Counted from the first letter of the stretch, positions 3,239 through 44,566 are shown. The stretch is DNA of 64,000 nucleotides from Candidatus Aldehydirespirator sp. (GCA_965221605.1 CBDCSK010000004.1:209331-273330); one strand, 5' to 3'. Translations and numbers: made by a program. Notes: generated by a model not told the origin, from the sequence alone.

Positions 3239-4649
3239 GGTGTAATAGCGGTTGGGGTGCAGGTTCCGGGGGTCATGTTAGGCGGCGATTGTGACGGTGC
3301 GGTCGGGCTGGTCGCTGACGGTGTGGGCGGGTTGGTGGAGCTGGTGGCGGAGCTCGGTGAGGCACCGGGCGATGGCGGGGGTGTAGGTGAGTCCGCGCCA
3401 GCCCGCTGAGGCCCGGTCGAGCACGGCCCAGACCAGTGTGAGGCAGCTGGCTTCGCCGGGGAGCCGGCCGATGACTTTGACTCTTCGGCGGGTCTCGCCG
3501 AAGGTGCGCTCGATCAGGTTGGTGTGGCGGATCCTGCGCCAGTGCTCGGCGGGGAACCGCAGGTGCGCGGTGAGCGCCTGTCGGTCGCTGAGCAGACAGC
3601 GCACGGCGGCGGGGAACTCGCTGTCGTAGCGGCGGGCGAAGCCGTCGATGCCGGCCTGGGCGTGCCGCACCGCCCCCTGGCCGGGCTCGATGTCGTCGGG
3701 CAGGTCGAACAACTCCCAGAACGCGGCCTTGATCTCGTCGCGGCGCCCGGCGGGGACTTTGGCCACCACGTTGCGGCAGCGGTGGATGAGGCACCTCTGG
3801 CGCAGCGCGGAGGCCATGGTGGTCTCGATGGCGCCGATGAGGCCGGCCGCGCCGTCTGAGATGACCAGCAGCGGCGGCCTGAGGCCCCGGTGTGTGAGGT
3901 CGGCGAGGAAGCCGGCCCAGGCGTCATAGGACTCGTCGCCGCCGGGCTCGACGGCCAACAGCACCGGCCGACCCAGTGTGGTGATGCCGTAGGCGACCAG
4001 CACCGGCTCAGCCCGCGATCCGTCGTGCATCTTGAAGTGCGACCCGTCGAGGAACAGGTAGTCCAGCTCGACGTCGGAGAGGTCGCGGCCGCGGAACGTG
4101 TCGAACTCGTCCCGCAGCCGGGCGCAGACCCGGCTGGCGGTGGACTTCGACAGCGCGGCCTCAGGGCCCAGCGCCTCCGCCAACAGGGCCTCAATGTCGC
4201 GATCTGACAGGCCCCGCACCCACGCCGAGATGACCAGCGCCTCCAGCGGCTCAGAGCGCACCACCCCCTTGCCCAGCAGCTGCGACGCGAACGCCTCGGT
4301 GGTGTTGCGCAGCTTCGGGCGCTTCAGCGCCACGGGCCCCGCGGTGGTCTTGACCGTCAGGTCGCCGTAGCCGTTGCGCTGCCCGGCGCGCTCTCCGCCG
4401 GCGCGGGAGTTCCAGCCCCGCCCCAGCCAGGAGGTGACCTCGTCCTCGAGGACCTGCTGCAACACAAGCCGCGCCGACAGGCGCATCACCTCCTCGAGGA
4501 CCTCCGCGATGTCGCGGCCCGAGCCGAACAGCTCGTCGATCTCGGCGCGGACAGCTTCTGTGGGCGATACTCGTGTTGGCACGGGCGTAGGTCTCCTTCT
4601 TGAGTTGACAGGTTCTCGAAGGAACCTACGCCCCTGCTGCTATTACACC
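3239..4649 (-). mobile_element. IS256-family insertion sequence (complete, ~1411 bp)
   Basis: 29-bp imperfect terminal inverted repeats, 24/29 matches. GGTGTAATAGCGGTTGGGGTGCAGGTTCC (3239-3267) pairs with the reverse complement of 4621-4649 (GGTGTAATAGCAGCAGGGGCGTAGGTTCC). They enclose a single mutator-type transposase gene. Confidence 0.85.
3278..4582 (-). CDS. IS256-family (mutator-type) transposase
   Basis: 434 aa. Contains typical IS256 blocks: ...DYLFLDGSHFKMH..., ...LVISDGAAGLIGAIE..., ...RQRCLIHRCRNVVAKVP..., ...IRHTNLIERTFGETRRRVKVIG.... Confidence 0.9.
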   Translation of the reverse strand: MPTRVSPTEAVRAEIDELFGSGRDIAEVLEEVMRLSARLVLQQVLEDEVTSWLGRGWNSRAGGERAGQRNGYGDLTVKTTAGPVALKRPKLRNTTEAFASQLLGKGVVRSEPLEALVISAWVRGLSDRDIEALLAEALGPEAALSKSTASRVCARLRDEFDTFRGRDLSDVELDYLFLDGSHFKMHDGSRAEPVLVAYGITTLGRPVLLAVEPGGDESYDAWAGFLADLTHRGLRPPLLVISDGAAGLIGAIETTMASALRQRCLIHRCRNVVAKVPAGRRDEIKAAFWELFDLPDDIEPGQGAVRHAQAGIDGFARRYDSEFPAAVRCLLSDRQALTAHLRFPAEHWRRIRHTNLIERTFGETRRRVKVIGRLPGEASCLTLVWAVLDRASAGWRGLTYTPAIARCLTELRHQLHQPAHTVSDQPDRTVTIAA

Positions 4650-13854: not shown

Positions 13855-14973
13855 ATGGACTTCGAGCTGGGCGAGGAGGAGCAGGCCATCCGGGACCTGA
13901 CCGGACAGGTCCTGGCCGACATGTCCTCGCACGAGCGTCTGAAGGCCCTGGCCGCTGACGGCGACCACATGGACCGCAAAGCCTGGGCCGCGCTGGCCGG
14001 CACCGGCGTCGTCGGAGCCGCCGTGCCCGAAGCGCATGGCGGCCTGGGCCTGGGGTTCCTGGCCACCGCGGTAGCCCTGGAGGAGGTCGGTCGCCATGCC
14101 TCGCCCGTGCCGCTGCTGACCACGGCGGTGATGGGAGCTATGCCGGTCGCCGCCTACGGCACCGAGGCCCAGCGGGCGGCGTGGCTGCCCGGCATGGCCG
14201 ACGGCTCGGTGCTGGCCTGCGCCGCCCTGGCCGAGGACGGCACCGCCCCGGCCGAGCCGACCACCTCGGCGCGCGCCGACAACGGAGACTTCGTGCTGGA
14301 CGGCACCAAGGTGCTGGTCGCGGGCGGACTCGACGCCGACGTCGCCCTCGTTCCGGCCCGCCTCGACGACGGCGGGGTCGGGGTGTTCCTGGTTCCTGCC
14401 GGCACCGCAGGCCTCGAGCGTCTCGCGGTAGAGGTGACGACCGGCCGCCCGGAGGCCCGCTTCGAGCTGTCGGGCGTGAGGGTCGGAGCCGACGCCCTGC
14501 TCGGCGGCGGCTCAGCCGACGGCGCCGAGGTCGTGCACTTCATCGAGCGTCACGCCAACGTCGGGCTGTGCATGATGATGTCGGGCGCGGCCCGGGCCGC
14601 CATCGAGATGACCGCCGGCTACGCCAAGCAGCGCCACCAGTTCGACCGGCCCATCGCCACCTTCCAGGCGGTCAGCCAGCGGGCCGCCGACTCCTACATC
14701 GACGCCGAGGCCATCTGGCTGACCGCCTACCAGGCCGCCTGGCGCCTGTCGGCGGGGCTGCCCGCTGACCGTGAGATCGCCATAGCCAAGTACTGGGCCT
14801 CAGAGGGCGGCTACCGGGTGGTCCACGCCGCGGTGCACGTCCACGGCGGGGTGGGCGTCGACCGCGACTACCCGTTGCACCGACACTTCCTGGCCGCCCG
14901 TCACATCGAGCTCACCCTCGGCCACGCCGAGGAGCAACTGGCCGACCTGGGCTGCCAGATCGCCGCCGTCTAG
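13855..14973 (+). CDS. Acyl-CoA dehydrogenase-family protein (second subunit-like paralogue)
   Basis: 372 aa: MDFELGEEEQAIRDL..., QRHQFDRPIATFQAV, HGGVG. Lies 24 bp after the preceding ACAD gene. Confidence 0.85.
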   Translation: MDFELGEEEQAIRDLTGQVLADMSSHERLKALAADGDHMDRKAWAALAGTGVVGAAVPEAHGGLGLGFLATAVALEEVGRHASPVPLLTTAVMGAMPVAAYGTEAQRAAWLPGMADGSVLACAALAEDGTAPAEPTTSARADNGDFVLDGTKVLVAGGLDADVALVPARLDDGGVGVFLVPAGTAGLERLAVEVTTGRPEARFELSGVRVGADALLGGGSADGAEVVHFIERHANVGLCMMMSGAARAAIEMTAGYAKQRHQFDRPIATFQAVSQRAADSYIDAEAIWLTAYQAAWRLSAGLPADREIAIAKYWASEGGYRVVHAAVHVHGGVGVDRDYPLHRHFLAARHIELTLGHAEEQLADLGCQIAAV

Positions 14974-14977
14974 AGCT

Positions 14978-15856
14978 TCACTCCTCCAGCAGCGAGCGGG
15001 CGAGGAGGGCCGCGCCCAACAGGCCGGAGTCGTCTCCGAGGGCGGGAGCGGTAACGGACCCGTCTTGGCCCGAGAGATAGTCGGCGTAGCCGCCCAAGTC
15101 GGCGCGGCTCTCCGTCCGGATCATCTCCGCCAGGCCGGGACGGCCGCCAACACCGCCGCCGAACACGATCCGGTCGGGGGCGAACGAGTAGGCCAGCACC
15201 CGCACCAACTGGGCCAGGTAGGCGGCCTCCATCTGCCAGATGTCGTCGCGGTCGGCGGCTTGGGATGGCTCGACTCCCCAGCGCTCGGCCATGGCCGGTC
15301 CGGAGGCCATCCCTTCCAGGCAGTCGCGGTGGAACGGGCAGTGTCCCGGATAGTCGTCGTCGGAGACGCGGCGCACCGGGATGTGTCCCAGCTCGCTGTG
15401 GCGCCGTCCTCGCCAGGGTGTCCCGTCCATCGCCATGGCCGCGCCGATGCCGGTGCCGACCGTCACATAGGTGAGCCGCCTGGGCCGGGGCTCCGGCCCC
15501 AGGGTCTGCTCCGCTACCGCGGCCGCCTCCACATCGGTCTGGATTGCGGCGGGCACACCGGCGGCATCCGCCAGCCGTCCCAGAATCGGGCTGCTCGACC
15601 AGCCCGGTTTGGGCGTGCCCACCAGCGCTCCGTAGCCGGGCGAGTTGGGATCCAGATCGACCGGGCCGAAGGAGGCGATCCCCAGCGCGGCTACTGGCGG
15701 AGCCCGTTGGAAGAACGCGGCGACGGCCGCCAGGGTCGTGTCGGGGTCGGTCGTCGGCACCCGCACGGAGTCCACGATGGTCATGTCCGCCGACACCACC
15801 GCCCCCCGGAACTTGGTCCCGCCCGCCTCCACCGCCGCCAGCAGGTGGCGCTTCAT
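14978..15856 (-). CDS. ROK-family sugar kinase (fructokinase-like)
   Basis: 292 aa. N-terminal AVEAGGTKF, VTVGTGIGAA, and the Zn motif GHIPV...HCPFHRDCLEG typical of ROK kinases. Confidence 0.85.
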   Translation of the reverse strand: MKRHLLAAVEAGGTKFRGAVVSADMTIVDSVRVPTTDPDTTLAAVAAFFQRAPPVAALGIASFGPVDLDPNSPGYGALVGTPKPGWSSSPILGRLADAAGVPAAIQTDVEAAAVAEQTLGPEPRPRRLTYVTVGTGIGAAMAMDGTPWRGRRHSELGHIPVRRVSDDDYPGHCPFHRDCLEGMASGPAMAERWGVEPSQAADRDDIWQMEAAYLAQLVRVLAYSFAPDRIVFGGGVGGRPGLAEMIRTESRADLGGYADYLSGQDGSVTAPALGDDSGLLGAALLARSLLEE

Positions 15857-15904: not shown

Positions 15905-16242
15905 TCAGTGGTTGAGAAGGGTCTTGACGATCTCGCCGACCTGCCAACTCGTGTCGGGGCCCACCGCACCCAGTCGGTGCAGCAGGCGCTGGGTGTTGAT
16001 CGCACGAAGCAGCTCGCACTGTACGTAACTGTCGTGGCTCAGACCGGTCTGGGTGCTGGCGGGCACCTCAACATGCAATGACAGGCCTCGATGCGTGGTT
16101 GTCAGCGGTGCGACGATTACGAGGGGAAGTCGGTGCCGAGCCATTCGGGTGGCCCCAACACGATCGCGGGTCGGCGGGCAGCCGGTTCGCCCGGGTATGG
16201 CGTGCCGAAGTCGACGAGCCATAGCTCATCAATCGATGCCAT
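15905..16242 (-). pseudogene. mazF: mazF/pemK-family toxin gene interrupted by a 1-nt frameshift
   Basis: ATG at 16242 gives MASIDELWLVDFGTPYPGEPAARRPAIVLGPPEWLGTDFPS*. The rest (LVIVAPLTTTHRGLSLHVEV...VKTLLNH) continues in another frame down to 15905. Adding one G to the run at 16123-16126 restores ...GTDFPLVIVAPLTT.... Confidence 0.8.
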
Positions 16243-16465
16243 CGGCAACGTGAGACGACTCCGCCTCAGCCAAGTAGTCGGCCCAGGCGCCGGGGTCGCT
16301 CCGCAGAGCGGCGTACTCCTCCTGCACCCGCAGGCCGAATCGCATCCGCCTCAGCGCCTCGGCGGCCTGTCGCACGGTCTCTGTAAGGCTGTCGCCCGAC
16401 TCGTTGCTCATGTCGAGCAGCCGCGCATGAGTGTCGCGGTCAACCCGGATGGTCGTCGTCTCCAC
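16229..16465 (-). CDS. Ribbon-helix-helix antitoxin (MazE-like partner of the frameshifted mazF)
   Basis: 78 aa. The N-terminus METTTIRVDRDTHARLLDMS is RHH-like. Its 3' end overlaps the mazF start (16242) by 14 nt. Confidence 0.7.
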   Translation of the reverse strand: METTTIRVDRDTHARLLDMSNESGDSLTETVRQAAEALRRMRFGLRVQEEYAALRSDPGAWADYLAEAESSHVADGID

Positions 16466-16545: not shown

Positions 16546-18366
16546 TCAATGGAGGGTCACGCCTTCGGGCGGGGGACGGAACGTGCCCCAGCATTCGATG
16601 GTGCCACCGGCGCGCAGGCCGCACGAGTGGCTCGGGCTTGTGGAGACCGACGTGAACCGCCCGCCCGGAGCGTCGAGCAGCCCCGCGTAGTCCAGGCCCC
16701 AGCACTCGACGGTGCCATCGGTGCGCACCGCGCAGGAGTGGTTGCGGGCAGCCGAGACGGAACTGAACGCGCCGGCGGGGGCCTCGAGGAGCCACCCATG
16801 GTCGAGGCCCCAGCATTCGACGGTGCCGTCGGTGCGCACCGCGCAGGAGTGGCTGGCCCCCACCGACACGGCGACGAAGTTCCCGCCGGGCGCGGGCGCC
16901 CAAGCGTCTCCCCGGGATCCCCAGCATTCGATGGTGCCGCCGGCGTGCAGCCCGCAGGCGCGGCTGTTGCCTACCGCCAGCGAAACGAGGGGCTCGTCTG
17001 CACCGCCGGTTCCGCCGATGTGGAGGATGGTCGTACTGTCACTGCTGGCCTGCACGTTGCTCCAGCACAGGGCCATGCCGTCGGCGTCCAGTACGCAGGC
17101 CTGGCCGCCTCCGGCGTGGACCGCAGTGAAGGGGCCGGCGGCCCGTTCGCCGGCACGATCTACGGCCTCCACGACGCGCTCGAGCACGGCCTGCACCTGC
17201 TCCGGAGAGTTGGGCGGCCCGACGCCCCAGCACTCGACGGTGCCGCCGGCGCGCCGGCCGCAGGAGAAGCCCGTTCCTGCCGCGACCGACATGAACCGTC
17301 CACTCGGGGCGTCGGCCTGGCCGCGGTCGTTGGCCCCCCAGCACTCGACGGTTCCGCCGGCTCGGACCCCGCAGCTGTGCTCCTCGCCGGTGGACACTGC
17401 GCTGAACGACCCACCGGGCGCCTCCAGTTGTGTGACGAAGCGCCGGCCCCAGCACTCGATGTTCCCGTCCACCCGGACCCCGCATGAGTGGTCCCAGCCG
17501 GTGGACACCGACGAGAACCGGCCCTCAGGCGGTTCGATCTGGCCCCAGTGATTGGCCCCCCAGCAGTCGATGGTGCCGCTGGTGCGCAGCCCGCAGGAAT
17601 GCCGGCCCCCGGTGTCGATCGCGCTGTACCGGCCGTGCGGGGCGTTGCTCTCATCGATGAAGCTGCGACCCCAGCACTCGGCGGTGCCGTCGACACGCAG
17701 ACCGCACGACTGGTCCCCACCCGCCGAGACCGACACGAACTGCCCGGCAGGGGCTTCGGCCTGGCCCCAGTGATTGTCGCCCCAGCACCGGACACCGCCG
17801 CCGCTGCGCAGCACGCAGGAGTGCCCGAATCCGGCCGCGACCCCGAAGAAGTGCCCGCCGGGCGCGATGACAGCCTCGGTCTTGGCGCTGCCCCAGCATT
17901 GGATGTCGCCGTCGACTCGCAGAGCGCATGAGTGGCTGTCGCCGACGGTGATGTCCACGTACTGCCCGCTGGGGGCTCGCAGCAGCTCCAGGAAGTCCAA
18001 GCCCCAGCATTCGATGGTGCCGCCCACCCGCAGGCCGCATGTGTGCCGGCGACCTGCGGACAGGGTCGTGAAGGTGCCCGCGGGCGCGTCGATCTGGTCG
18101 CTGTGGTTGGCGCCCCAGCAGACGGCGGTGCCGTTGGTGCGCAGCGCGCAGGTGTGGCGGCTGCCGGCGGCCACCGCCGCGAATCTCCCGCTTCCGGCGC
18201 GCTCCAGAGTCCCCGACTCCTCGACGACGCTGGCGACGTTGCCGGGATCGCTGGCGCCGTTCGCTCCGGAGACGGCTGGACTCTGCCCCCCGGTGCTGTC
18301 TCCGGAGCACCCGGCCACCGTGAGCATGAGCACCGCCGCGATGCATGCTGCCGATCGCAGCCTCAC
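16546..18366 (-). CDS. RCC1-like repeat lipoprotein (14 short repeats)
   Basis: Signal and lipobox MRLRSAACIAAVLMLTVAGC. 14 repeats of ~39 aa with consensus H(S/T)CG(L/V)RxDGTxECWG. Confidence 0.85.
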   Translation of the reverse strand: MRLRSAACIAAVLMLTVAGCSGDSTGGQSPAVSGANGASDPGNVASVVEESGTLERAGSGRFAAVAAGSRHTCALRTNGTAVCWGANHSDQIDAPAGTFTTLSAGRRHTCGLRVGGTIECWGLDFLELLRAPSGQYVDITVGDSHSCALRVDGDIQCWGSAKTEAVIAPGGHFFGVAAGFGHSCVLRSGGGVRCWGDNHWGQAEAPAGQFVSVSAGGDQSCGLRVDGTAECWGRSFIDESNAPHGRYSAIDTGGRHSCGLRTSGTIDCWGANHWGQIEPPEGRFSSVSTGWDHSCGVRVDGNIECWGRRFVTQLEAPGGSFSAVSTGEEHSCGVRAGGTVECWGANDRGQADAPSGRFMSVAAGTGFSCGRRAGGTVECWGVGPPNSPEQVQAVLERVVEAVDRAGERAAGPFTAVHAGGGQACVLDADGMALCWSNVQASSDSTTILHIGGTGGADEPLVSLAVGNSRACGLHAGGTIECWGSRGDAWAPAPGGNFVAVSVGASHSCAVRTDGTVECWGLDHGWLLEAPAGAFSSVSAARNHSCAVRTDGTVECWGLDYAGLLDAPGGRFTSVSTSPSHSCGLRAGGTIECWGTFRPPPEGVTLH

Positions 18367-18426
18367 AACAGGACCGTAGCCCCGGAGGCCGAGCGGAGCC
18401 GCTGGTGATCGGGCTGTTGGGGATTG

Positions 18427-20703
18427 TCAGTCGGGGAGCACCGCGATGCTGGAGAAGCACATCTCGTCGACGGTGCCCTCGTTCCAGGTGACGTAGCGGG
18501 GCTCGGGCATGTACTGCAGGGTGCGGTCCCACCAGCACTCGAAGCGCACCATGTCGCCCCGCTCGATGCGGATGTCCTCCACCGGCTCGTAGTTGAGCTG
18601 CCACTCGAAGTCCCACACACCGATGTCGAGCAGGATCCGTGCCTCGGGCGTGTCGGGATGGAGGGTCATGCGGTAGGCCGCGCCGAACTCGTGCATGTGG
18701 CCGAGGACGGTGTGGATGGTGCCGGTGTTGCGGGCCGGCAGGTCACAGGAGCTGTAGCCGATGCTGCCGTCGAGGTCGTCGTAGTCGTCGACGGTGGCGC
18801 CGCACTGGGCCAGCAGCAGGCCGGGGATGAGCGGGGCGAATGAGTCGTACTTCTCGCCGATCTCGGCCAGCACGTTGTCCCGAAGGCACAGGTTGACGTA
18901 TCCGTCGACGGTGGCGGCCCGCTCGGCCGCGACCGCGGCCTCCTCTGGGGTGCACGGCACCTCTGCGGGGGTGAGGTAGTTGCTGCCTGTGATGTGGGTG
19001 ATGCCTGCGGCGACTTCCTCGGCGGTGAGGGTGTCGAGGATTATCCATGAGCCGTCGGACGGGGTGTCGTGGTCGTAGTGATAGTGGATCTGGTTGACGA
19101 TCATGTCTCCGGGTGCCAGGTAGAGGCCGTACCCGTCGGGGTAGATGGTGGGGGACTGGCCCGGCGCCCAGCCCTGGATCGAGTACACGCCCTCGCTGTT
19201 GAGCCCCGACAGCCCGAAGCACGTCCAGCCCGGCTCGTCAGAGAGGCCCTGGGCCGCCTCGATCCTGTCCTCGGCTGCGATCTTGGCTGCGACCTCCTCC
19301 GCCGCGGCAGCCGGCACCCGGTAGACGATCGAGTGGTGGACGACCGGCACCTGGTCGGGCCTGAACTCGAAGCCCTTGACCCAGTTGCCGTCGCCCTCGG
19401 GATCGGCCACCTGGTGCACCTGGCAGCGGTAGTCGTCGTTCTTGACCGGCCAGCCGTCGGGACGGGAATAACCGGTGTACAGCCCGTCGCGGGGTCCGAT
19501 CTTCTGGTCCTCCTCGATTGGGATGATGGCCTGGAAGCGGGCCACCAGCGGGGTGCTGGGGCGCACGTCGAGGCCGCCGCCGGCATCGGCCCATGCCTTG
19601 ATGGCGGCCTTCTCGTCGTCGCTCAGGGCCCACTCGTGCACGTACTCCGGGCTCAGGTCCGACGGCAGCCAGGGTGGCATGAAGCCGATTCCGGTGACGA
19701 ACGCGATGTCGTCGGCGATGGCGGCCGCGTCTCCGGCGGTGTCGAGGGCGAGGGTGCTCCAGGCCGGGCCGCCGGTGGTGTGGCAGCTCACGCAGCGTGT
19801 CTCCAGGATGGGCTGCACGGTGGCTGCGAACCGGCCCTTCGCGATGTCAGAGACCGGGATCTCGCGGCGCAGGTCTCCGGTCGGCTCCGAGGCGAAGCCG
19901 ACCCGGTCGGCGACCATCTCGAAGGTCAGGGTCACCTCGTCGGAGGTGTGCACCAGCCGGGCGATGTTGATGGGTCCGACGTCGTAGTCGCTGGTCAGGA
20001 CCGTGGCCGACATGACTGCGGCGAGGGAGTCCGGCGTGATGACGACGGCGCCGGTGAAGGTCTCGGTGCGGGTGGTCTCCTTCACGGTCAGCTCGCCGGT
20101 GATGTCGATGTCGTAGCTGGCGCCGTCGGCGAACCCGGTGTCGAGGCCTTCTATCGAGGTGGGCCTGAACCGCACGAACGGCCAGTGGCTCGACTGGAGG
20201 TAGTCGTGGCGGATGCGCTTGTCCCGCAGCACCGAGTCGGACTGGAACATCTCGACGTTGATCACGATCTCGCCGATCCGGCTGGCGCCTAGGTCCACGA
20301 GGTTGACGGCGATCTCCCCGGCCATCACCGTCGTGGTGCCGACCGTGGTGCGCGACAGGCCACCGAGACGCTCCTGGATGTGATAGCTGGCCCGGGAGCC
20401 GGCCTCGGGCACGATCCGATATAGGCGCTCGGTCTCGACATCGAAGTCCTCGGGATCGTCGAAGTCCACCACCGGGGGAGCGAGCACCTCGCCTTGGGTG
20501 ACCAGCTCGGAACGGTCGATCTCACCGCCGGCGTCGCCGTTGACCGCGCTGCCGACGGCCACATCCACCGCATCCACGGCTACATCGACGGCGGTCTCGA
20601 CCGTGCCGGACCACTGGCTCCGGGTGAGGAACGCGGTCGTCCCGATGACGAGCACAGCCAGGATCGCGATCCGGCCCGCGTCAAGCCTCCGCCACCGGGA
20701 CAC
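18427..20703 (-). CDS. Membrane-anchored fusion protein: YceI-like domain + CxxCH (PSCyt1-like) motif + PHM/DBH-like copper type II monooxygenase domain
   Basis: 758 aa with an N-terminal TM segment (IAILAVLVIGTTAF). YceI-like SYHIQERLGG...ITGELTVKETTRTETFTG. FAATVQPILETRCVSCHTTGG. Cu-monooxygenase-like YRCQV, VVHHSIVY, QIHYHY, GHMHEFG and VDEMCF. Confidence 0.75.
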   Translation of the reverse strand: MSRWRRLDAGRIAILAVLVIGTTAFLTRSQWSGTVETAVDVAVDAVDVAVGSAVNGDAGGEIDRSELVTQGEVLAPPVVDFDDPEDFDVETERLYRIVPEAGSRASYHIQERLGGLSRTTVGTTTVMAGEIAVNLVDLGASRIGEIVINVEMFQSDSVLRDKRIRHDYLQSSHWPFVRFRPTSIEGLDTGFADGASYDIDITGELTVKETTRTETFTGAVVITPDSLAAVMSATVLTSDYDVGPINIARLVHTSDEVTLTFEMVADRVGFASEPTGDLRREIPVSDIAKGRFAATVQPILETRCVSCHTTGGPAWSTLALDTAGDAAAIADDIAFVTGIGFMPPWLPSDLSPEYVHEWALSDDEKAAIKAWADAGGGLDVRPSTPLVARFQAIIPIEEDQKIGPRDGLYTGYSRPDGWPVKNDDYRCQVHQVADPEGDGNWVKGFEFRPDQVPVVHHSIVYRVPAAAAEEVAAKIAAEDRIEAAQGLSDEPGWTCFGLSGLNSEGVYSIQGWAPGQSPTIYPDGYGLYLAPGDMIVNQIHYHYDHDTPSDGSWIILDTLTAEEVAAGITHITGSNYLTPAEVPCTPEEAAVAAERAATVDGYVNLCLRDNVLAEIGEKYDSFAPLIPGLLLAQCGATVDDYDDLDGSIGYSSCDLPARNTGTIHTVLGHMHEFGAAYRMTLHPDTPEARILLDIGVWDFEWQLNYEPVEDIRIERGDMVRFECWWDRTLQYMPEPRYVTWNEGTVDEMCFSSIAVLPD

Positions 20704-20807
20704 GACTCAGTATGCACCCATGGCTCGGCCCCGGCTCGCGTGCCCTGAATCGGCCGCGGTGGGGCCGTTCTCGGACTCAACGGCTGCCGGTTCGGTTCGG
20801 CGGGTGG

Positions 20808-22535
20808 TCAGCCGGTGTAGGTCACGCCGTCGGGAGGGGCCCGCAGCGTTCCCCAGCATTCGACGGTGCCGTCGGCTCGCAGACCGCAGGTGTAGCCCTG
20901 GCCGACCTCGATCGCGGCGAACTCCCCGGCGGCGGGCGCCTCGTCGGTCCCCCAGCACTCCACGTTGCCGCGGGGGAGCAGGCCACACGAGTGCACTCCG
21001 GTCGAGACAGCCGTGAAGACGGCATCGGGGGCGTCGGTCTGTCCGTGCGAGTTGGAGCCCCAGCAGTCGGCCGTGCCGCCGGAGCGCAGCCCGCACGTAT
21101 GGCTGTCTCCGGCTGCCAGCGCGCTGAAGGAACCCGCCGGCGAATTCAGCCTCCCCGCGTAGGGGTTGCCCCAGCACTTGGCTCCGCCGGTGTCGAGGAT
21201 GCCGCAGTTGTGCGAGCTCCCTGCCGAGATGGCCATGAAGGTGCCGTCGGGTGCGTCGGCCTGTCCGTGCGAGTTGGAGCCCCAGCATTCGACGGTGCCG
21301 TCGTCTCGTAGGGCGCAGGCGTGGCCGACACTGGCCGTCACCGTGTCGAATTGTCCGTCGGGGACGTCGAGAACGCCGAAGCGGTCGTATCCCCAGCACT
21401 TGATGGCCCCCGCCGGGCGTAGGCCGCAGGCGAAGTAGTTCCCGGTGGCCATCGAGTTGAAACGCCCGCCGGGCGGCGCCATCTGACCCACCAGGTCGGT
21501 GCCCCAGCACTGGACGGTGCCGTCGGTTCGCAGCCCGCACGTATGGTTGCCGCTGGCAATCAGCGAAGCGAACGGCTCGCTGGGCGGTTCGGCTCCCGCC
21601 ACGAAGCGCCGGCCCCAGCATTGGATCGTCCCGTCCGTGCGGAGCCCGCAACTGTGGTCGGCCGCGGCCGCGACCGTCTGGAACTGGCCGTGCGGCGCAG
21701 GGGTTGCGCCGTAGGCGTTCGATCCCCAGCACTCGGCGGTGCCATCGGTGTGTACTCCGCACGTGTGGTCCACCCCGGCCGCCAGAGTCGTGAAGGTCCC
21801 GCTGGGAGCGCCCGACTTGCCCAGGTAGTCCGATCCCCAGCACTCGGCGGTGCCGTCGAGCGTCACCCCGCAGGTGTGGTCGGCTCCTGCCGCGATGGCG
21901 GTGAAGCGTTCCGTCCGCCGGTCGGCCTGTCCGAGCTCGTTGCTGCCCCAGCACAGCACCGTGCCGCCGCTGCGCAGGACGCAGGCGTGGTCGTGCCCGG
22001 CAGCCAACGCGGTGAAGTGCCCGCCGGGCGGCGTCAGGAGTCCGGCGTCGGAACCGCCCCAGCAGTCGACGTCGCCGTCGTCACGCAGAGCACAGGTGTA
22101 GTTGGCGCCCGCGGACACCGCGACGAACTCACCGTCGGGGACATCGGTCATTCCCGCGAAGTCCGCGCCCCAGCACTCGATACTGCCGTCGATCCTGATG
22201 GCGCAGTTGTGGCCGGGTCCAGCTGAGATGGCCGTGAAGTCTCCCTCGGGAGCGTCGAGCACCCCGCTCTGGTTGACGCCCCAGCAGTCGATGCCACCGT
22301 CGGCCCGGATCGCGCAGGTGTGCCAGAACCCGGCCGCCACCGCGATGAACGTTCCCTCGGCCGGCGCGGGCTCCGGGGTCAAGGGCTCGGTCACGGTGGC
22401 TGCCTCGCTGACGGTGGCCGTTTCTGAGAGTTCCTCCACCTGGGACCCGGCCGGATCGGGCGACGTGCCAGTCGAGCACCCCGCCGCCACCAGTGCCATC
22501 ACCACGAGCCAAACGGCTGACCGCCTCACAGGCAT
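20808..22535 (-). CDS. RCC1-like repeat lipoprotein (14 short repeats), paralogue of 16546..18366
   Basis: Signal and lipobox MPVRRSAVWLVVMALVAAGC. 14 repeats of the same HxCG(L/I)RxDGxxxCWG type. Confidence 0.85.
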   Translation of the reverse strand: MPVRRSAVWLVVMALVAAGCSTGTSPDPAGSQVEELSETATVSEAATVTEPLTPEPAPAEGTFIAVAAGFWHTCAIRADGGIDCWGVNQSGVLDAPEGDFTAISAGPGHNCAIRIDGSIECWGADFAGMTDVPDGEFVAVSAGANYTCALRDDGDVDCWGGSDAGLLTPPGGHFTALAAGHDHACVLRSGGTVLCWGSNELGQADRRTERFTAIAAGADHTCGVTLDGTAECWGSDYLGKSGAPSGTFTTLAAGVDHTCGVHTDGTAECWGSNAYGATPAPHGQFQTVAAAADHSCGLRTDGTIQCWGRRFVAGAEPPSEPFASLIASGNHTCGLRTDGTVQCWGTDLVGQMAPPGGRFNSMATGNYFACGLRPAGAIKCWGYDRFGVLDVPDGQFDTVTASVGHACALRDDGTVECWGSNSHGQADAPDGTFMAISAGSSHNCGILDTGGAKCWGNPYAGRLNSPAGSFSALAAGDSHTCGLRSGGTADCWGSNSHGQTDAPDAVFTAVSTGVHSCGLLPRGNVECWGTDEAPAAGEFAAIEVGQGYTCGLRADGTVECWGTLRAPPDGVTYTG

Positions 22536-22619
22536 CCCCTCCGGTTGCCTCCGGGGCCGTGTCTAGTATCGCACCGTGACCGAGTGCTTCACAGAGGTTT
22601 CCCAGCCGCTCGCAGGCGT

Positions 22620-23615
22620 CTACTCCAGCGGGAACGGCAACTGGAGCCACCACGGACGGTCGATCGCCTCGACCTGGCTGACCCACTTCACCCACCAGAA
22701 GCCCCGGCGTCCCGGGGCCACCAGCCTCACCGGCGCGCCGTGGCCCCGGCGCAACCGCTCGCCGTTGTAGCCGACGGCGAGGTACAGGTTGGCCGCGTCG
22801 CGGGCCGGGAACAGCCGGCTGTAGCCGGTCAGCGAGGTGACCTCCAGGGTGGGTCGGTCCAGTTCCGGCATCAAATCGGTGAGCGGCACCGCATCCCAGG
22901 ACTGGCGGCTCCACCATCCCCCGGTGCAGTCGAGGTCGGCCTCCAACGGTCTGGTCTTCTCGTGCAGCGCCTCCAATGCCACCGGGTTGCCTGCGATCGT
23001 CAGCTCCCAGTCCGAGGCAGGAACCCGGGGCGACCGGTCGTTGAGCCACATGGTTGTCGGCATCTCCGTCGGGTTGAACGAGGCGATCTCGTGGGAGCCG
23101 GTGAAGCGCCGGTTGTCGCCCACCACCAGTTGCTGGATCCCGTAGGCCGCGCCTGCGGCGGCCAGGGCGAGGCCCCCGCCGGTGAGTGCCCGGCGGTCGA
23201 GGTCGGTGATGCGGGGGCGTCCGGGCCGGCTCACGATGTGCCACACCACCAGAGGCGCCAGCAGCGCGGCCAGAAGCACGTGGGTCCACAGCGCCGACCA
23301 GTAGCCCACCCCGTGCCACAGCCCGGTGGCGTGCAGGATCCCCAGCACGACCGTGGCTGTCACCAGCGCGCCCAGCAGCATCGACAGCCACCGGGTGAGC
23401 CGGCGGCGCTTCAGCCCGGTGCGCACCGAGCCCCTGAGCTTGGCGGGCGCCAGCGCTAGCAGGCTCAGCCCGGCCAGGGCGTGCATGACCGTCACCCAGC
23501 GGGCCCAGCCGCTGCCGACGCCCCAGGACACCAGCCCGGTCACCGCGGCCACCGTCACCGCCACGGCCAGCAGCAGATCCACCCGTCGAGCAGTGAGCCA
23601 CTTGCTGAATATCAT
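22620..23615 (-). CDS. Molybdopterin-dependent oxidoreductase (sulfite-oxidase/YedY-MsrP fold) fused to an N-terminal multi-TM, His-containing domain
   Basis: 331 aa. About 130 aa of hydrophobic helices carrying conserved His (VMHALAG, ILHATGLWHG, WTHVLL, VVWHIV). Then the Mo-domain block LDCTGGWWSRQSWDAVPL and GAPVRLVAPGRRGFWWVKWV. Confidence 0.75.
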   Translation of the reverse strand: MIFSKWLTARRVDLLLAVAVTVAAVTGLVSWGVGSGWARWVTVMHALAGLSLLALAPAKLRGSVRTGLKRRRLTRWLSMLLGALVTATVVLGILHATGLWHGVGYWSALWTHVLLAALLAPLVVWHIVSRPGRPRITDLDRRALTGGGLALAAAGAAYGIQQLVVGDNRRFTGSHEIASFNPTEMPTTMWLNDRSPRVPASDWELTIAGNPVALEALHEKTRPLEADLDCTGGWWSRQSWDAVPLTDLMPELDRPTLEVTSLTGYSRLFPARDAANLYLAVGYNGERLRRGHGAPVRLVAPGRRGFWWVKWVSQVEAIDRPWWLQLPFPLE

Positions 23616-23633: not shown

Positions 23634-24779
23634 TTAGGCCGCTCCCAGGACGGCGTCGGCGATCCGGTCCTCGCAGGTGGCCGTGTCCCACCATGACAGC
23701 TGGAGTTGCTTGGCCCGCCGGAAGTAGAGCTGGATGTCGTACTCCAGGGTGAAGCCGATCCCCCCGAAGACCTGCTGGCACATGGCGGTGACGTCCCGGT
23801 AGGTGCGGCAGGCGAACAGCTTGGCCATGGGGGCCAGACGGTCGACCGGGCGCTCTGTGCTGTGTGCCCAGGCCGCCTCGTACACCAGCAGCCGGGCGCC
23901 GTCAAGGGCGGTGCGGGCGTCGGCCAGGTAGTGCGAGATGGCCTGGAACTCGGCCAGGGCCTTGCCGAACTGGTGCCTGGCCTTGGCGTACTCGACAGTG
24001 ATCTCCAGCGCGTAGGAGGCTCCGCCCACCGCCTGGGCCGCGGCCAGGATCGCGCCGGCGTGCATGGCTCGGTCCCAGGCCGCCCAGCCGGTTCCCGGCG
24101 GCGCGCCGGGATCTCCCAGTCTGGCCCCGGACTCCACGGCGACACCGTCGAAGGTGAGCAGGTACTGGGTGTCCGACCCGATCGACAGGCGCTGCTCCAG
24201 GCTCAGCCCCGCGGCGCTGGGGGGCACCACGAACAGGTCGATGTCGCGATCAGCGTCGCCGGTGCGGGCCAGGACCACCAGCAGGTCGGCTGCTGAGGCG
24301 AAAGGCACGTGGAGCTTGGCGCCGTCGAGCACGAACCCGTCGCCGTTGGCCCGGGCCGCCAGCTGCACACCCCGGGGCTTGAAGCCGCCACCCGGCTCCA
24401 GCCATCCCACGGTGGCGACGGTCTCACCCGACGCGATCGGACCGAGCAACTCGTCCCGCTGGCCCGGCGACCCGGCCTGCATGATCGCGCCCGCGGCCAG
24501 GACGCAGCTCACGAAGTGGGGGAGCGGAGCCAGCGAGCGGCCCAACTCCTCGTACAGCACCACCCCGTCGATCAGGCTCATGCCCGATCCGCCGTCGCTA
24601 TCGGGGACCATCAGGCCGCAGAGGCCCAACTCCCCGAAGCGGTCCCAGAGGTCGCGGGCGATGCCGTCGGGGTCGTCCTCGAGCTCCCGCACCCGCTCCA
24701 GAGGGGAGAACTCGCCGCACAGGCCCCGCACCATGTCGCGCAGCATGTCCTGCTCACCGGTGAAGTCCAGGTCCAGCAT
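23634..24779 (-). CDS. Acyl-CoA dehydrogenase
   Basis: Start trimmed to MLDLDFTGEQDMLRDMV (ATG at 24779, with GGGAGG upstream). C-terminal blocks ARHQFGKALAEFQAI and FGGIGFT. Confidence 0.85.
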   Translation of the reverse strand: MLDLDFTGEQDMLRDMVRGLCGEFSPLERVRELEDDPDGIARDLWDRFGELGLCGLMVPDSDGGSGMSLIDGVVLYEELGRSLAPLPHFVSCVLAAGAIMQAGSPGQRDELLGPIASGETVATVGWLEPGGGFKPRGVQLAARANGDGFVLDGAKLHVPFASAADLLVVLARTGDADRDIDLFVVPPSAAGLSLEQRLSIGSDTQYLLTFDGVAVESGARLGDPGAPPGTGWAAWDRAMHAGAILAAAQAVGGASYALEITVEYAKARHQFGKALAEFQAISHYLADARTALDGARLLVYEAAWAHSTERPVDRLAPMAKLFACRTYRDVTAMCQQVFGGIGFTLEYDIQLYFRRAKQLQLSWWDTATCEDRIADAVLGAA

Positions 24780-24825
24780 CACCGCCTCCCGGGTCGTGCA
24801 GGACCCAGCGGTTCCGAGCCGCTCA

Positions 24826-25887
24826 TCACGGCCGCCAATCGTCGCCGCGGCGCAGCCACGGGTTGTCCGACGACGACATGGGCAGGGCGACCCGGGCACT
24901 GCCGGTCGTGCACGTGCGGTCGTCGCCCCGCAGCATCAGGTCGAGTTCGACCCAGCCGCATCCGGTGCCGTCGATCGGGGTCGCGCTCACCCGGGTCGCG
25001 ATGGTCATCGTGTCGCCGGGGAACACCGGATCGTGCATGCGGAACGAGATCCGGCCCGGGCGGCCCTTCGGGCCCGTCCAGTCGGTGATGGCCCGCTCCA
25101 TCCAGGCCAGCTGGTTGGGGGTGTTGAGGAAGATGTCGCGGGTGCCGTTGCGCTCGGTGGCGAAACGGTAGTCGTGGTGCATGGGCCGCCAGTCACGGCT
25201 GGCCAGCGCCCCCAGCACGACGGTGGTGGCCGTGACGTCGTGGACGACTTCTGGCAGCACATCGCCGATCCGCACCTGGTCGTGGGCGGGGTCCGGCTTG
25301 GCCCGCGGGCCGGAGCTCCCGGCCGGTGGCGTGGACTCCGCCTGCCCCGACTCCTGGGGCTGCCCGGCCGGGTCGGCGTCGTTTCGGCGGTAGCCGAAAC
25401 CGGTGTAGGACTCCACGCCCACCAGCGCCCCGTGCTGGTTGTGGTACTCGACATCGATCACCCAGAAGCGGCCGGAGCCGAGCCGGGTCGTCTTGGGATC
25501 GCTCACGGACCGCAGCACCTGGTGGTGGCTGATCACGTCGCCGGGGCGCACGGGCTCGTGGAACACGATCGTGTTGTCGCTCATGATGGCCTCGGGCAGT
25601 TCCAGCCGTTCCTTGAGGTCGAAGTGGACCTGGAGAGCCACCTGTTCGGTGGTGGCGCCGGGCGCCCAGCGGTGGGGGCGCATCCACAGCGACAGCGTGC
25701 TGAGAGGCAGGATGCTCCCCCCGGCCAGCATCGCGGCCACGGCTGGTTCCCAATAAAGGGGGTTGCCGTTCTCGGTGGCGGCCAGCGTGTTCCAGCCGTA
25801 GCCCAGTTCGGCCGGGAAGTCGGCCGTCTCGGGGTACATGGGCTGCCCGATCAGCTCGGCCACGTCATCGGGCAGCGCAGTGGTCAT
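24826..25887 (-). CDS. Double hot-dog MaoC-like (R)-hydratase/dehydratase
   Basis: Start is MTTALPDDVAELIG (ATG at 25887), with a 4-bp ATGA overlap with the upstream CoA-transferase stop. Two hot-dog halves joined by a P/Q/S-rich linker. FPGDTM and RPGDVI motifs. Confidence 0.8.
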   Translation of the reverse strand: MTTALPDDVAELIGQPMYPETADFPAELGYGWNTLAATENGNPLYWEPAVAAMLAGGSILPLSTLSLWMRPHRWAPGATTEQVALQVHFDLKERLELPEAIMSDNTIVFHEPVRPGDVISHHQVLRSVSDPKTTRLGSGRFWVIDVEYHNQHGALVGVESYTGFGYRRNDADPAGQPQESGQAESTPPAGSSGPRAKPDPAHDQVRIGDVLPEVVHDVTATTVVLGALASRDWRPMHHDYRFATERNGTRDIFLNTPNQLAWMERAITDWTGPKGRPGRISFRMHDPVFPGDTMTIATRVSATPIDGTGCGWVELDLMLRGDDRTCTTGSARVALPMSSSDNPWLRRGDDWRP

Positions 25888-36476: not shown

Positions 36477-37679
36477 CTACCGGGCCCCAATGTCCACACT
36501 GGGTCTCAGCTGTATCCGCACGTTGACGGCCAGGATCAGGATTGCGCCCACGACGAACAGGTCGAACCGGGGGAGAGTGATCCCCAGCGCCATCAGGGCC
36601 AGCAGGGACACGACCGGGCCGAAACACAGCAGCGAGTTGACCGCCGCGTCCTCGGTCCTGATGTTCCCGACCCGGAGCGTGATGCCCGCCACCGACGCCG
36701 CCGCTCCGATCAACAGGGCGCCGAGAGCAGCCGCTGACGTCAGCGATCCGTCAACCTGCGGTGCCAGCATTCCGATGAGAATGTTCACAGGAAGGGCAAC
36801 TATTCGAGCCATTACATAACCCAGCATCGTGAGCCACACCAGCAAACGGCGATCCGGATCTCCTCGCAGCTCGATCGGTGTGGGGCTCTGAGTGCTGTAC
36901 TCGTCAGATTCGTCCGCCGACGCGTCGACTAGTGCGTAGTAGAGGGTCTTTCCGTACGCCAGGGTGCTCAGGACGCTCAGAGCAGCCAGCATCGAGGCAA
37001 CCAATGCGATCGCCATCCCGGCCACCGCCTCGAACGACACCAGGTCGGCGGCTGATCGGATCTGACCTCCGGCCTGGCTTCCCAACATACCCGCCAGCCC
37101 GATCCCCGCCAGCGCGATGAGGACCATCCGCTCCTTCGACATGGCGCCGGAGGCATGCCCGATCGCGGACGGTGCGCCGCGGAACCGTCGGTCACTGTCG
37201 TTGTGGCGGGCCAGCGTGTACACCAGGAACACCGGCCATAGCTCGAAGATCGTGGTTGCGATGGCCGTCTCGAGGATCGTGGCGGCCCACGTGAGGAAGC
37301 CGTAGTGAAGGCTGGAGACGAGGGCCCACACGATGGGCAGCTTGAGCACGCCGAGAGCGTCACCTGCTGGCAGGTGCCGAAGGATCACGGCCTTGTCGCC
37401 GCCAGTGCCTGCCCTCACTCGCCGAAAGTAGACGCAGTGTGTCCTTGGTCTTGTCAGACGCCGTCGCTGGCTCTCGCCCAGGCGTCCATTGACGTAGGTT
37501 GTCCTCGAATACAGCAGGAAGATCCCCGGTATCGCCACCTGCATCATCGTGATCAAGGCGTTGAAGTAGAACGGGTTGGTGTCCGAGGCGGTGACATGAA
37601 GCAGGGGAGGCGCGGACGCGTACAGCAGCGTGGCGGTGAGCACCAGACGGATCGCATGGCCGCGATGACTCGCCTTCAC
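36477..37679 (-). CDS. Polytopic integral membrane protein, function unknown
   Basis: About 10 hydrophobic helices. The GTG at 37679 overlaps the upstream stop (GTGA). The longer 458-aa ORF would run into the upstream gene. Noticeably less GC-rich than its neighbours. No motif recognised. Confidence 0.55.
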   Translation of the reverse strand: MKASHRGHAIRLVLTATLLYASAPPLLHVTASDTNPFYFNALITMMQVAIPGIFLLYSRTTYVNGRLGESQRRRLTRPRTHCVYFRRVRAGTGGDKAVILRHLPAGDALGVLKLPIVWALVSSLHYGFLTWAATILETAIATTIFELWPVFLVYTLARHNDSDRRFRGAPSAIGHASGAMSKERMVLIALAGIGLAGMLGSQAGGQIRSAADLVSFEAVAGMAIALVASMLAALSVLSTLAYGKTLYYALVDASADESDEYSTQSPTPIELRGDPDRRLLVWLTMLGYVMARIVALPVNILIGMLAPQVDGSLTSAAALGALLIGAAASVAGITLRVGNIRTEDAAVNSLLCFGPVVSLLALMALGITLPRFDLFVVGAILILAVNVRIQLRPSVDIGAR

Positions 37680-38962
37680 AGCGCGTCGGCGTGGGCTTGC
37701 AGCAGTGGGACGACCAGGTCGGGGTGCATGCGTCCCATGCCGCACTCGGCGGCGATGCCGAAGTGGGGGAGATGGCGGCGGGCAGCCGCCATCCGCCGTT
37801 TGGCGCCGGCGCCTCCGTCCTCGTGGTGCACCAGCCCGAGGTAGACGTGGCATCCGCCGATGCGGAGGCCGCGCAGCGGAGCGAAGTAGGCGTCGTCGTC
37901 ACGGTCGATCGGGACCGGCATGTGGACGAAGTCGATGCGGCGTCCCGAGTTGCCGACCACGAAGTTCGCCAGCGCCACGCACCGGGCGAGGTCGGCCGGT
38001 TCGACGAAGTGCTCGTCGTGCATGCTCCCGTAGCAGAAGTGGTAGCCGACCACGACGCCGTCGGGGATCTCCATGCTGATCGCCGGCGTCTGGAGCGCGA
38101 TCCGGGCCATGGGATCGCCGGCGGGTGCCCAGTCGAACAAGTCGTTGAAGACGACGGTCTCCCAGCACGCGTCCCACTGGATCGTGAGGTCGTCGTGGGG
38201 GATGGCCTGGCACAGCCGCCGGACCTCCTCGGCCATCGCCAGCGTGTAGGCCGTGTTCACGCGGTCGGCGTCGTCGGGGTCGATGATGTTGTCGGTCAGG
38301 AACTTGTGGACCGGGCGGCAGTGGTAGCACTCCGAGAAGTTCTCGACCGAGGCCTTCCAGTTGGCGTCATGGCGAGCCGGCGACTGGTACACCAACTCCA
38401 TCGCCTCCGGGCTCGGCGCCCAAGCCTCGATCTCGGCTCGCAGGCCCGGGTAGCAGTCCTCGAACGGCGGACTGTCGGCGTCCAGGCTCACGAACAGGGC
38501 GCCCGCGACGATCTCGAGCCGGACCGGCCGGAGCCCGAGCGTCGCCTGATCGAACCCGGCAACGTCCGCGGTGTGGGGCGCATAGAACAGCGAGCCGTCG
38601 GACGCGTACGTCCATGCGTGGTACGGGCATGTGAGCCAGCGGGCGTTGCCGCAGCCGGATGCGACCGCGTGACCACGGTGACGGCACACATTGTGGAAGG
38701 CGCGGACGGAGCCGTCGTCACCCCGGATGAGCAGCACTGCGTGATCGAGGATCGCCTCGACGGCGTAGTCACCCGGCTCGCTGATGTCCGCCTCGTGCCC
38801 GAGGCATATCCAACTCCGCTGGAAGATCCGCCCGTCTTCCAGCGCGAGCGTCGCCGCGGAGGTGTAGTCGCCATGAGCCAGGCCGGCCCGCATCCGGGCG
38901 GAGTCGTTGTCGCAAGCCACCTCGTGGAGGGCGGCGTACAGGCGAGCGGCCGGGGAGGTCAT
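37676..38962 (-). CDS. Chimeric protein: Rieske [2Fe-2S] oxygenase alpha-subunit N-terminal half fused to a MetE/CIMS-like (cobalamin-independent methyltransferase-like) C-terminal region
   Basis: Rieske motif CRHRGH...CPYHAW. Mononuclear-Fe motif NWKASVENFSECYHCRPVH. About 25 aa later come MetE-like blocks LTIQWDACWE (cf. IQIDEP), GYHFCYGSMHDE (cf. H-x-C-Y) and GIAAECGMGR (cf. PDCGLKTR). Confidence 0.6.
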   Translation of the reverse strand: MTSPAARLYAALHEVACDNDSARMRAGLAHGDYTSAATLALEDGRIFQRSWICLGHEADISEPGDYAVEAILDHAVLLIRGDDGSVRAFHNVCRHRGHAVASGCGNARWLTCPYHAWTYASDGSLFYAPHTADVAGFDQATLGLRPVRLEIVAGALFVSLDADSPPFEDCYPGLRAEIEAWAPSPEAMELVYQSPARHDANWKASVENFSECYHCRPVHKFLTDNIIDPDDADRVNTAYTLAMAEEVRRLCQAIPHDDLTIQWDACWETVVFNDLFDWAPAGDPMARIALQTPAISMEIPDGVVVGYHFCYGSMHDEHFVEPADLARCVALANFVVGNSGRRIDFVHMPVPIDRDDDAYFAPLRGLRIGGCHVYLGLVHHEDGGAGAKRRMAAARRHLPHFGIAAECGMGRMHPDLVVPLLQAHADAL

Positions 38963-41518: not shown

Positions 41519-41668
41519 CCCCAGCACCTCTCAACAGGTTGGGTCTCCTCCACCGTGATCTGGTCCAACCACGCCTTGATCTGCTCACAGGAGCCCTCGC
41601 TGCCGTTGTCGGCCGTGTCAGCGCCTACGGTGACCGGCAAACTCAACGCCAGGTGTTCCAATCGCCCG

Positions 41669-42789: not shown

Positions 42790-42865
42790 CCATGGCTACA
42801 CACGACTTCCTGCGCTCCTACCATCGTCGCTGGCAGACTGCTGCCGTAACCCGGAGGCTCTGACC

Positions 42866-43219: not shown

Positions 43220-43237
43220 CCCAGCAGGTCCCCAGTG

Positions 43238-43849: not shown

Positions 43850-43852
43850 CGG

Positions 43853-44561: not shown

Positions 44562-44566
44562 TTTAG
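44562..44566. repeat. Target-site duplication TTTAG (left)
   Basis: TTTAG lies immediately outside the left IS1380 terminus. The same pentamer is at 46187-46191, immediately outside the right terminus. Confidence 0.8.

Follow-up and report, generated by a model that had tools for sequence, protein, structure and literature searches.

A predicted YceI-cytochrome c-copper monooxygenase fusion and its neighbouring envelope genes at a variable locus of Candidatus Aldehydirespirator

Do four closely spaced genes that all encode envelope proteins form one system? The question is raised by four genes, here called A, B, C and D, on the minus strand of a 64,000-nucleotide stretch of Candidatus Aldehydirespirator sp. 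(GCA_965221605.1 CBDCSK010000004.1:209331-273330; this whole stretch is referred to as the window). The initial annotation of the window described four consecutive minus-strand genes with gaps of 60-104 bp, and this was confirmed (84 bp for A-B, 104 bp for B-C and 60 bp for C-D). Its statement that all four products are membrane-bound or extracytoplasmic agrees with Pfam matches, lipoboxes and hydropathy. The further idea that the four genes make one pathway was not supported: their synteny does not reach beyond loci with a C of 77% identity or more, and unrelated flanking genes are kept there equally. Our reading, to which we give a probability of about 0.6, is that the locus brings together three unrelated kinds of envelope gene, joined in one genus, and is not a dedicated four-gene system. 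Judged from its sequence and a structural model, C appears to encode a PHM-type copper monooxygenase with a built-in cytochrome c and a YceI domain, a member of a large family on which we found no studies.

The neighbourhoods of C relatives were collected with 10-kb flanks from 80 genome loci and several assembly loci, and were scored by tblastn with the window genes and Ccm proteins. They were divided into a genus clade, in which C is at least 77% identical to that of the window (n = 31), and a more distant set, in which it is 51-74% identical (n = 52). Many clade relatives at 82-92% identity are Candidatus Aldehydirespirator, and other relatives at 83-91% are metagenome-assembled genomes which we take from their bin names to be sponge-derived. 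An RCC1 gene was found directly upstream of C in 28 clade loci and directly downstream in 17, and A was found within 10 kb in 26; the distant set contained no RCC1 gene on either side of C and a single A. The four-gene arrangement was seen only in the clade. Even there D, the RCC1 gene downstream of C, was missing in 14 of the 31 loci and A in 5, while an acyl-CoA dehydrogenase (ACAD) gene and a ROK-family gene on the flanks were kept in 27 and 25 loci, as often as A.

The initial annotation had in mind an electron-transfer chain from a membrane heme to a Mo or Cu centre, with the propeller proteins as binding or scaffold partners. Worked out as a single envelope system, this would mean that the heme b domain of A takes electrons from the membrane and hands them to its molybdenum centre and, via partners, to the heme c/copper enzyme C. 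Adjacency, common direction, short gaps, the extracytoplasmic or membrane-bound nature of every product and the presence of A near C in most clade loci speak for such a system, and some synteny does exist among relatives, so that the idea is weakened rather than strictly refuted. We nevertheless consider it very improbable. The flanks that are kept as often as A are unrelated and cytoplasmic, D is dispensed with in nearly half of the clade, the 52 distant loci hold no RCC1 gene and one A, and neither neighbour occurs in 80 metagenome loci of the wider family. In addition, A and C would each already hold a complete donor-acceptor pair.

Rearranged loci show which of the genes travel together. 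Relatives of A at 62-72% identity occur in other settings. B, C and D are lacking in locus L091, which reads HpcH - A - ROK - SGL - SOD, so that A adjoins ROK directly, and in L090, where A stands by itself among translation genes. Conversely, L094 carries RCC1 - C within the HpcH ... SOD backbone and has lost A and ROK. L089 reads ACAD - A, then two sugar genes on the opposite strand, RCC1, a 590-aa C relative without YceI domain (66% identical) and ROK. RCC1 upstream of C is the only link that survives several of these rearrangements. The orders point to a backbone that is conserved, acyl-CoA genes - A - ROK - ... - SOD, and to a variable insert that separates A from ROK. C and RCC1 lipoproteins are found in the insert together with a toxin-antitoxin pair, and some genomes add repeat proteins of the cadherin/hemolysin type. 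On this comparison of gene orders A would belong to the backbone, and C would have come in from elsewhere, the ccm operon being its older and more widespread location; the site of joining would be the variable stretch between the two conserved backbone genes. RCC1 genes vary across loci, with 0-3 copies and sizes from about 520 to 1215 aa, and B orthologues diverge faster (57-84% identity) than C (77-92%). For genome scanning this is a caution: envelope genes that share a direction and are separated by short gaps can have been brought side by side in a single lineage, within a variable island.

Large Big_9/cadherin-like/hemolysin-type calcium-binding repeat proteins also lie just after the ROK gene, at 15948-18452 in L008 and at 15563-17842 in L093. 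They are consistent with a variable surface-protein region.

Gene C had been annotated as a 758-aa protein combining YceI, CxxCH and a PHM-like copper domain, and Pfam, ligand conservation and Foldseek bear this out. The product is predicted to be anchored in the membrane and to lie outside the cytoplasm, with a YceI domain, a class I cytochrome c and a two-copper monooxygenase of the PHM/DBH type joined in one chain (domain limits in Table 1). The signal-anchor helix is preceded by Arg residues and is conserved in homologues. The YceI-like domain scores 54.3 bits against a PF04264 cut-off of 23.7; PDB profiles 1y0g (E = 3.8e-5), 5ixh and 1wub match it, and Foldseek places it in the eight-stranded barrel fold, aligning it with 1wub, 7bwl, 1y0g and 2x32 at TM-scores of 0.60-0.69. 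In the cytochrome c domain, none of the 17 homologues departs from C304, C307, H308 or M342. M342, within an MPPW motif, is the presumed axial ligand, an arrangement known from small class I cytochromes c. PDB profile matches of this region to cytochromes c reach only E = 0.09-0.5; the place of the gene behind ccmH in 36 loci (see below) speaks indirectly for a cytochrome c.

The copper domain comprises about 360 residues, modelled with a predicted local distance difference test score (pLDDT) of mostly 70-90. When it was compared with the PDB by Foldseek, 29 PHM entries ranked at the top (3mll, E = 8.4e-12, TM-score 0.62 over 378 columns). The presumed ligands of CuH are H456, H457 and H540, and those of CuM are H669, H671 and M748; all six are invariant in the 17 homologues. 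Their equivalence to H107, H108, H172, H242, H244 and M314 of PHM was deduced from order and fold. A PDB sequence-profile search with C did not retrieve PHM, and fold comparison alone did. Eight invariant Cys residues in the domain would fit an extracytoplasmic, disulfide-bonded protein. The YceI domain of C and the molybdenum domain of A pass Pfam, and the PHM fold of the copper domain is found by Foldseek although the copper models of Pfam stay below threshold. The isolated domain gave E = 0.0036 and 17.9 bits with PF01082 (cut-off 30) and E = 0.012 and 15.6 bits with PF03712 (cut-off 23). Since C of the window falls below these cut-offs, it is better regarded as a divergent relative than as a typical member of the copper type II monooxygenases. 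Precomputed PF01082 matches exist on some C homologues, and one distant protein with the same triple fusion passes PF03712 at 30.9 bits.

How widespread is this architecture? A HMMER scan with the copper domain alone returned 2688 clusters at E <= 1e-3 and 1041 at E <= 1e-10, clustered at 50% identity. The best 150 were scored with home-made domain profiles; the full-length ones included 66 with cytochrome c and copper domains and a CxxCH motif, 22 with YceI, cytochrome c and copper domains, and 13 with the copper domain only. Among 105 full-length representatives, the most distant of them about 31% identical, the copper ligands were kept in 96-104, the cytochrome ligands C304/C307/H308/M342 in 88-90 and CxxCH in 88. 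No characterised bacterial PHM/DBH homologue and no YceI-heme-copper fusion was found in the literature searched, which is not proof of absence. With more than 1000 clusters bearing PHM-type copper sites, and cytochrome c fused to them, the family offers a natural system for studying how such sites are reduced by a protein donor, and it may reveal new extracytoplasmic hydroxylation chemistry.

Natural variants of 568-590 aa without the YceI domain were found in L093 (10001-11728), L089 (about 13864-15636) and L092 (10001-11707). The L093 variant is a 575-aa C from which YceI is deleted internally, and in P0088 and P0071 the internal deletion leaves the membrane anchor in place together with the first strand of YceI. 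That of L092 adjoins a DDE transposase in a purine-operon context. The fact that such variants exist, in L093 and L089 at the same locus, indicates that cytochrome c plus copper domain is the core unit and that YceI is dispensable for it.

The wider family was also followed into metagenomes with an alignment of cytochrome c-copper proteins. In the 80 loci obtained, many of them on short contigs and with crude calling of open reading frames (ORFs), there was no RCC1 or molybdenum neighbour, and the neighbourhoods yielded no functional or substrate clue. The sole recurrent neighbour was a methylmalonyl-CoA mutase gene (11 loci), whose adjacency is probably lineage synteny.

The more distant relatives of C are found in a different place. 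Although ccmF was never upstream of C in the genus clade, it was upstream on the same strand in 36 of the 52 distant loci, where C begins a median of 48 bp past the end of the ccmH/ccmI match. The order ccmABCDEFGH(I)-C is directly visible in L002, L003 and L004. A C relative at 74% identity has yet another position, between purine-biosynthesis genes and a GCV_T gene. In most Acidimicrobiales C would be the last gene of the ccm operon, whose products would attach its heme, and it would have moved in the genus of the window.

A complete System I operon, ccmABCDEFGH/I, lies about 4-10 kb upstream of the C homologue in the Acidimicrobiales loci L002, L004, L032-L045 and others. Most Actinobacteria use System II for cytochrome c maturation.

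The ccm linkage allows another explanation of C, namely that it is no substrate hydroxylase but assists the biogenesis of cytochrome c or of copper enzymes, or respiration, possibly by handling copper, by modifying heme or quinone, or by scavenging O2 or peroxide. The same-strand position just after ccmH in 36 loci spanning 53-70% identity would suit such a role, as would the link of YceI proteins to quinones and isoprenoids. We hold it to be unlikely, because all six catalytic copper ligands of PHM are conserved family-wide, which argues for PHM-type O2 chemistry. Moreover, ccm genes were nearby in only one of the 80 metagenome loci, and the gene stands outside the ccm operon in the genus of the window and in the 74% group.

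If C is a PHM-type hydroxylase, as we prefer, where would its electrons come from? PHM and DBH are animal copper enzymes that depend on ascorbate, which is recycled by cytochrome b561. The copper domain of C resembles them (1phm, 3mll) in its two-subdomain beta-sandwich, its HH...H / HxH...M pattern, its extracytoplasmic location and its many conserved Cys. It differs in a sequence identity of only about 13%, in its sub-threshold Pfam scores, in extra helical inserts at residues 465-484 and 586-642 compared with PHM, and in being bacterial, membrane-anchored and fused to cytochrome c and YceI instead of using ascorbate. We know of no extracellular ascorbate supply in bacteria; the fused class I cytochrome c is the most likely electron donor to CuH.

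The path that follows is deduced from what is known of the families and from the anatomy of C; what was observed are the gene models, domains, folds, ligand conservation and neighbourhood statistics. One helix would anchor C, with everything past residue 27 outside the membrane, and the Ccm system would attach heme to C304 and C307. Heme c (His308/Met342) would hand single electrons to CuH (H456, H457, H540), so that the fused cytochrome most likely delivers the two electrons in place of ascorbate and the copper monooxygenase would be self-sufficient. CuM (H669, H671, M748) would bind O2 and hydroxylate a C-H bond of the substrate, as in PHM/DBH. The YceI domain beside the anchor most likely supplies the heme from a bound quinol or polyisoprenoid; alternatively, it may present a lipophilic substrate. 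The electron-transfer idea of the initial annotation survives to this extent: transfer from heme to metal is plausible within A and within C, and a single chain through all four genes is not supported by the comparison of loci.

The proposed role of YceI follows the module logic of Cbp2D from Cellvibrio japonicus. Cbp2D joins a YceI-like, ubiquinone-binding X158 domain to cytochrome domains of the c type; when isolated, its X183 cytochrome reduces the copper of lytic polysaccharide monooxygenase (LPMO) and substitutes for ascorbate, and Cbp2D and Cbp2E were proposed as electron donors to these copper monooxygenases (Branch et al. 2021, PMC8981238). C shares with Cbp2D an extracytoplasmic YceI-like domain and a predicted small class I cytochrome c, and the Foldseek matches of its YceI domain include the Saccharophagus X158 structures 2x32 and 2x34. 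In the Cbp2D system donor and copper enzyme are separate proteins, the enzyme is an LPMO with one histidine-brace copper, and carbohydrate-binding modules are present, whereas C would have donor and enzyme in one polypeptide, of PHM type and with two coppers. The parallel suggests that bacteria may quite generally combine YceI with cytochrome c to drive copper monooxygenases outside the cell.

Gene A is of a kind already described in the literature. It appears to encode a heme b/molybdenum-cofactor membrane protein of the Sco3746 type. A simple hydropathy scan gave five hydrophobic segments (residues 12-30, 40-58, 76-94, 111-129 and 147-165), of which the fifth is weakly hydrophobic (score 1.33) and is followed by the positive charges of DNRR at 167-170. 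In an alignment with 11 homologues (58-79% identity), H45, H95, H112, H126, R141-R142 and C230 are invariant. H45 lies in helix 2, H95 at the end of helix 3, and H112 and H126 in helix 4. C230, in the DCTGGWW motif, is presumably the molybdenum ligand, as we assume from general knowledge of the sulfite oxidase family.

Members of the Sco3746 family have five transmembrane domains (TMDs) and a C-terminal molybdenum cofactor (Moco) domain; two b hemes are predicted to be held by histidines of TMDs 2-4, and TMD5 is preceded by a twin-arginine motif; their Sec-plus-Tat insertion was demonstrated experimentally, and they are distantly related to the split MsrQ/MsrP (Tooke et al. 2017, PMC5449189). 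A shares the five helices, the RR before a weak fifth helix with positive charges after it, the histidines of helices 2-4 and the C-terminal Oxidored_molyb domain; the likeness was drawn from these published family features and not from a sequence alignment with Sco3746. It bears out the first description of A as a molybdenum enzyme fused to a multi-helix membrane domain in the manner of MsrQ-MsrP (PMC5449189). The layout is that of a fused MsrQ-MsrP, yet A is not an MsrP orthologue: this assignment was rejected, as the NCBIfam equivalog NF003767 gave 20.8 bits over 41 residues against a cut-off of 207. Four helices with the conserved histidines, presumed heme b ligands, would be inserted by Sec and the fifth by Tat, leaving the Moco domain outward. 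On the analogy of a fused MsrQ-MsrP, the quinol pool would supply electrons, which heme b would relay to molybdenum (a layout suggested by Tooke et al., PMC5449189).

Genes B and D encode the 14-repeat RCC1-like lipoproteins that had been annotated. RCC1_2 matches them with E = 4e-88 (B) and 7e-68 (D). A 37-aa repeat with two Cys occurs exactly 14 times in either protein, and both signal peptides end in a lipobox Cys (LVAAGC for B, LTVAGC for D). They are about 40% (40-41%) identical to each other. The structure was modelled for B (AlphaFold, pLDDT 82) and showed 14 three-stranded blades. The best Foldseek match was BLIP-II (1jtd, 3qi0) with E = 3.5e-18, TM-scores of 0.79-0.81 and 29% identity over about 265 columns, that is half of B; the CRINKLY4 ectodomain came next, followed by UVR8 and RCC1. 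By this model B would be a tandem pair of BLIP-II-like seven-bladed propellers, and D likewise by its similarity to B. B and D share with BLIP-II (1jtd) and CRINKLY4 (7a0j, 7a0k) seven-bladed propellers with blades of about 37-40 aa (26-29% identity, TM-scores 0.75-0.81), all of them secreted or extracellular, and differ in having 14 blades in tandem, a lipid anchor and two Cys per blade. The BLIP-II-like fold is known as a protein- or ligand-binding module, and the context of B and D implies neither a beta-lactamase nor another target. They would be surface lipoproteins with disulfide-rich blades, for which a binding or scaffold role and no redox function is proposed.

Both appear to be ordinary members of a large repeat family. 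RCC1_2 repeat proteins are very common and are combined with many other domains in the homologue search. That search, made with B, was swamped by long unrelated RCC1-repeat proteins and did not return orthologues; tblastn on the fetched loci was used instead. Elsewhere in the 64-kb window no further RCC1-type repeats were found.

The link of RCC1 to C suggests a smaller unit, in which B, with or without D, and C would be a genus-level pair and the propeller would bind or present a substrate, for instance a host or envelope peptide or a glycan. In animal PAM the PHM domain is joined to a lyase of propeller fold, which is a loose parallel. The pair persists in L089 beside the YceI-less relative (about 66% identical) and in L094, where A and ROK have been lost, and both products would be anchored at the outer side of the membrane. 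It is absent from all 52 distant loci and all 80 metagenome loci, its RCC1 member varies in copy number and diverges much faster than C, and the RCC1_2 family is promiscuous as well as very large. The fold of B is that of binding propellers (BLIP-II, CRINKLY4, RCC1) and not that of the PAL lyase, whose propeller is of the six-bladed PAL/NHL type. Taken together, we regard the pair as doubtful. A PAL-like lyase function of the propellers was rejected on fold, as the top 50 matches of B are BLIP-II, CRINKLY4, UVR8 and RCC1-like entries, with no PAL entry.

Our preferred reading, three unrelated kinds of gene in one variable locus, has several points weighing against it. B stands directly upstream of C in 28 of the 31 clade loci and also in L089 and L094, and synteny that is lost outside the genus does not prove non-cooperation within it. 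The ccm adjacency may mean more than a substrate placed beside its maturation system. A scan of 14.5-25.5 kb for promoter and terminator consensus sequences found none, which is uninformative on operon boundaries at 70% G+C. In C the cytochrome c region matched PF13442 (Cytochrome_CBB3) with E = 3.9e-5 and 24.3 bits, below the gathering score of 27, and its AlphaFold model is poor there (pLDDT < 50). Finally, cofactor loading, electron path and chemistry are inferred across the locus, and for C this applies to heme binding, copper binding and electron path alike.

A broader reading would join these pieces. C would represent a widespread class of self-sufficient bacterial copper monooxygenases of PHM/DBH type, wired to the respiratory chain through the fused cytochrome c and co-expressed with the Ccm system in most Acidimicrobiales, which in a sponge-associated genus was re-deployed beside propeller lipoproteins presenting a host or envelope substrate. 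We give this a low probability. If true, a propeller-adjacent C would mirror in bacteria the way in which animal PAM couples a hydroxylase to a propeller, and a quinol-holding YceI in Acidimicrobiia would help to replace ascorbate at copper sites.

The closely spaced minus-strand run, listed in part in Table 1, is longer than A-D alone and extends from about 28308 to 14978. According to Pfam and ORF calls, it includes cytoplasmic acyl-CoA genes, a toxin-antitoxin pair and the ROK gene. A MaoC-dehydratase gene, a CoA-transferase gene and a second acyl-CoA dehydrogenase gene, all on the minus strand, lie 5' of the ACAD gene next to A. Since the run on this strand passes beyond A-D, strand and spacing do not single out the four genes. 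Intergenic folds around A-D contained no T-rich terminators. In the PemK toxin the Pfam match spans profile positions 32-107 only, and intact toxin-antitoxin pairs occupy the equivalent place in L007, L008 and L093.

Table 1. Positions of the genes, domains and other features discussed, numbered from the first nucleotide of the window.
Feature	Positions	Strand	Size, evidence or remark
Gene A	22620-23615	-	331 aa
Twin-arginine codons R141-R142 of A	23190-23195	-	Directly before the fifth helix (residues 147-165)
Oxidored_molyb domain of A, residues 197-321	22653-23027	-	PF00174, E = 9e-16; includes DCTGGWW
Gene B	20808-22535	-	575 aa
Gene C	18427-20703	-	758 aa
Predicted signal-anchor helix of C, residues 9-27	20623-20679	-	Hydropathy
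YceI-like lipid/polyisoprenoid-binding domain of C, residues 99-265	19909-20409	-	PF04264, E = 2.6e-14
Predicted cytochrome c domain of C, residues 288-392	19528-19842	-	CxxCH at residues 304-308 (bases 19780-19794)
PHM/DBH-like copper domain of C, residues 396-758	18430-19518	-	Foldseek, ligand conservation
Gene D	16546-18366	-	606 aa
Acyl-CoA dehydrogenase (ACAD) gene	23634-24899	-	Pfam; ends 18 bp upstream of A; conserved cytoplasmic backbone
Toxin-antitoxin pair	15905-16465	-	Between D and the ROK gene
Antitoxin ORF	16229-16465	-	78 aa; ORF call
PemK/MazF toxin, apparently frameshifted	16117-16248 + 15905-16222	-	PemK_toxin, E = 3.6e-11, C-terminal part only
ROK-family gene	14978-15856	-	PF00480, E = 8e-52; downstream backbone anchor
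Probable integrated island	40373-50862		
Tyrosine integrase with Arm DNA-binding domain	40373-41518	+	
DUF4062 + TPR protein	46726-50526	+	1266 aa
tRNA-Ala(GGC) gene	50789-50862	-	Far end of the probable island
Rieske/ring-hydroxylating oxygenase alpha-subunit gene	37676-38962	-	Just outside the low-G+C stretch
Mutator-family transposase gene	3278-4582	-	PF00872, E = 9e-69

Away from the A-D locus, the window holds a probable integrated island between the integrase and tRNA genes listed in Table 1. The G+C content is 0.61-0.67 over most of about 40-52 kb, with one 2-kb bin reaching 0.70, against about 0.70 elsewhere and about 70% for the 64-kb window.

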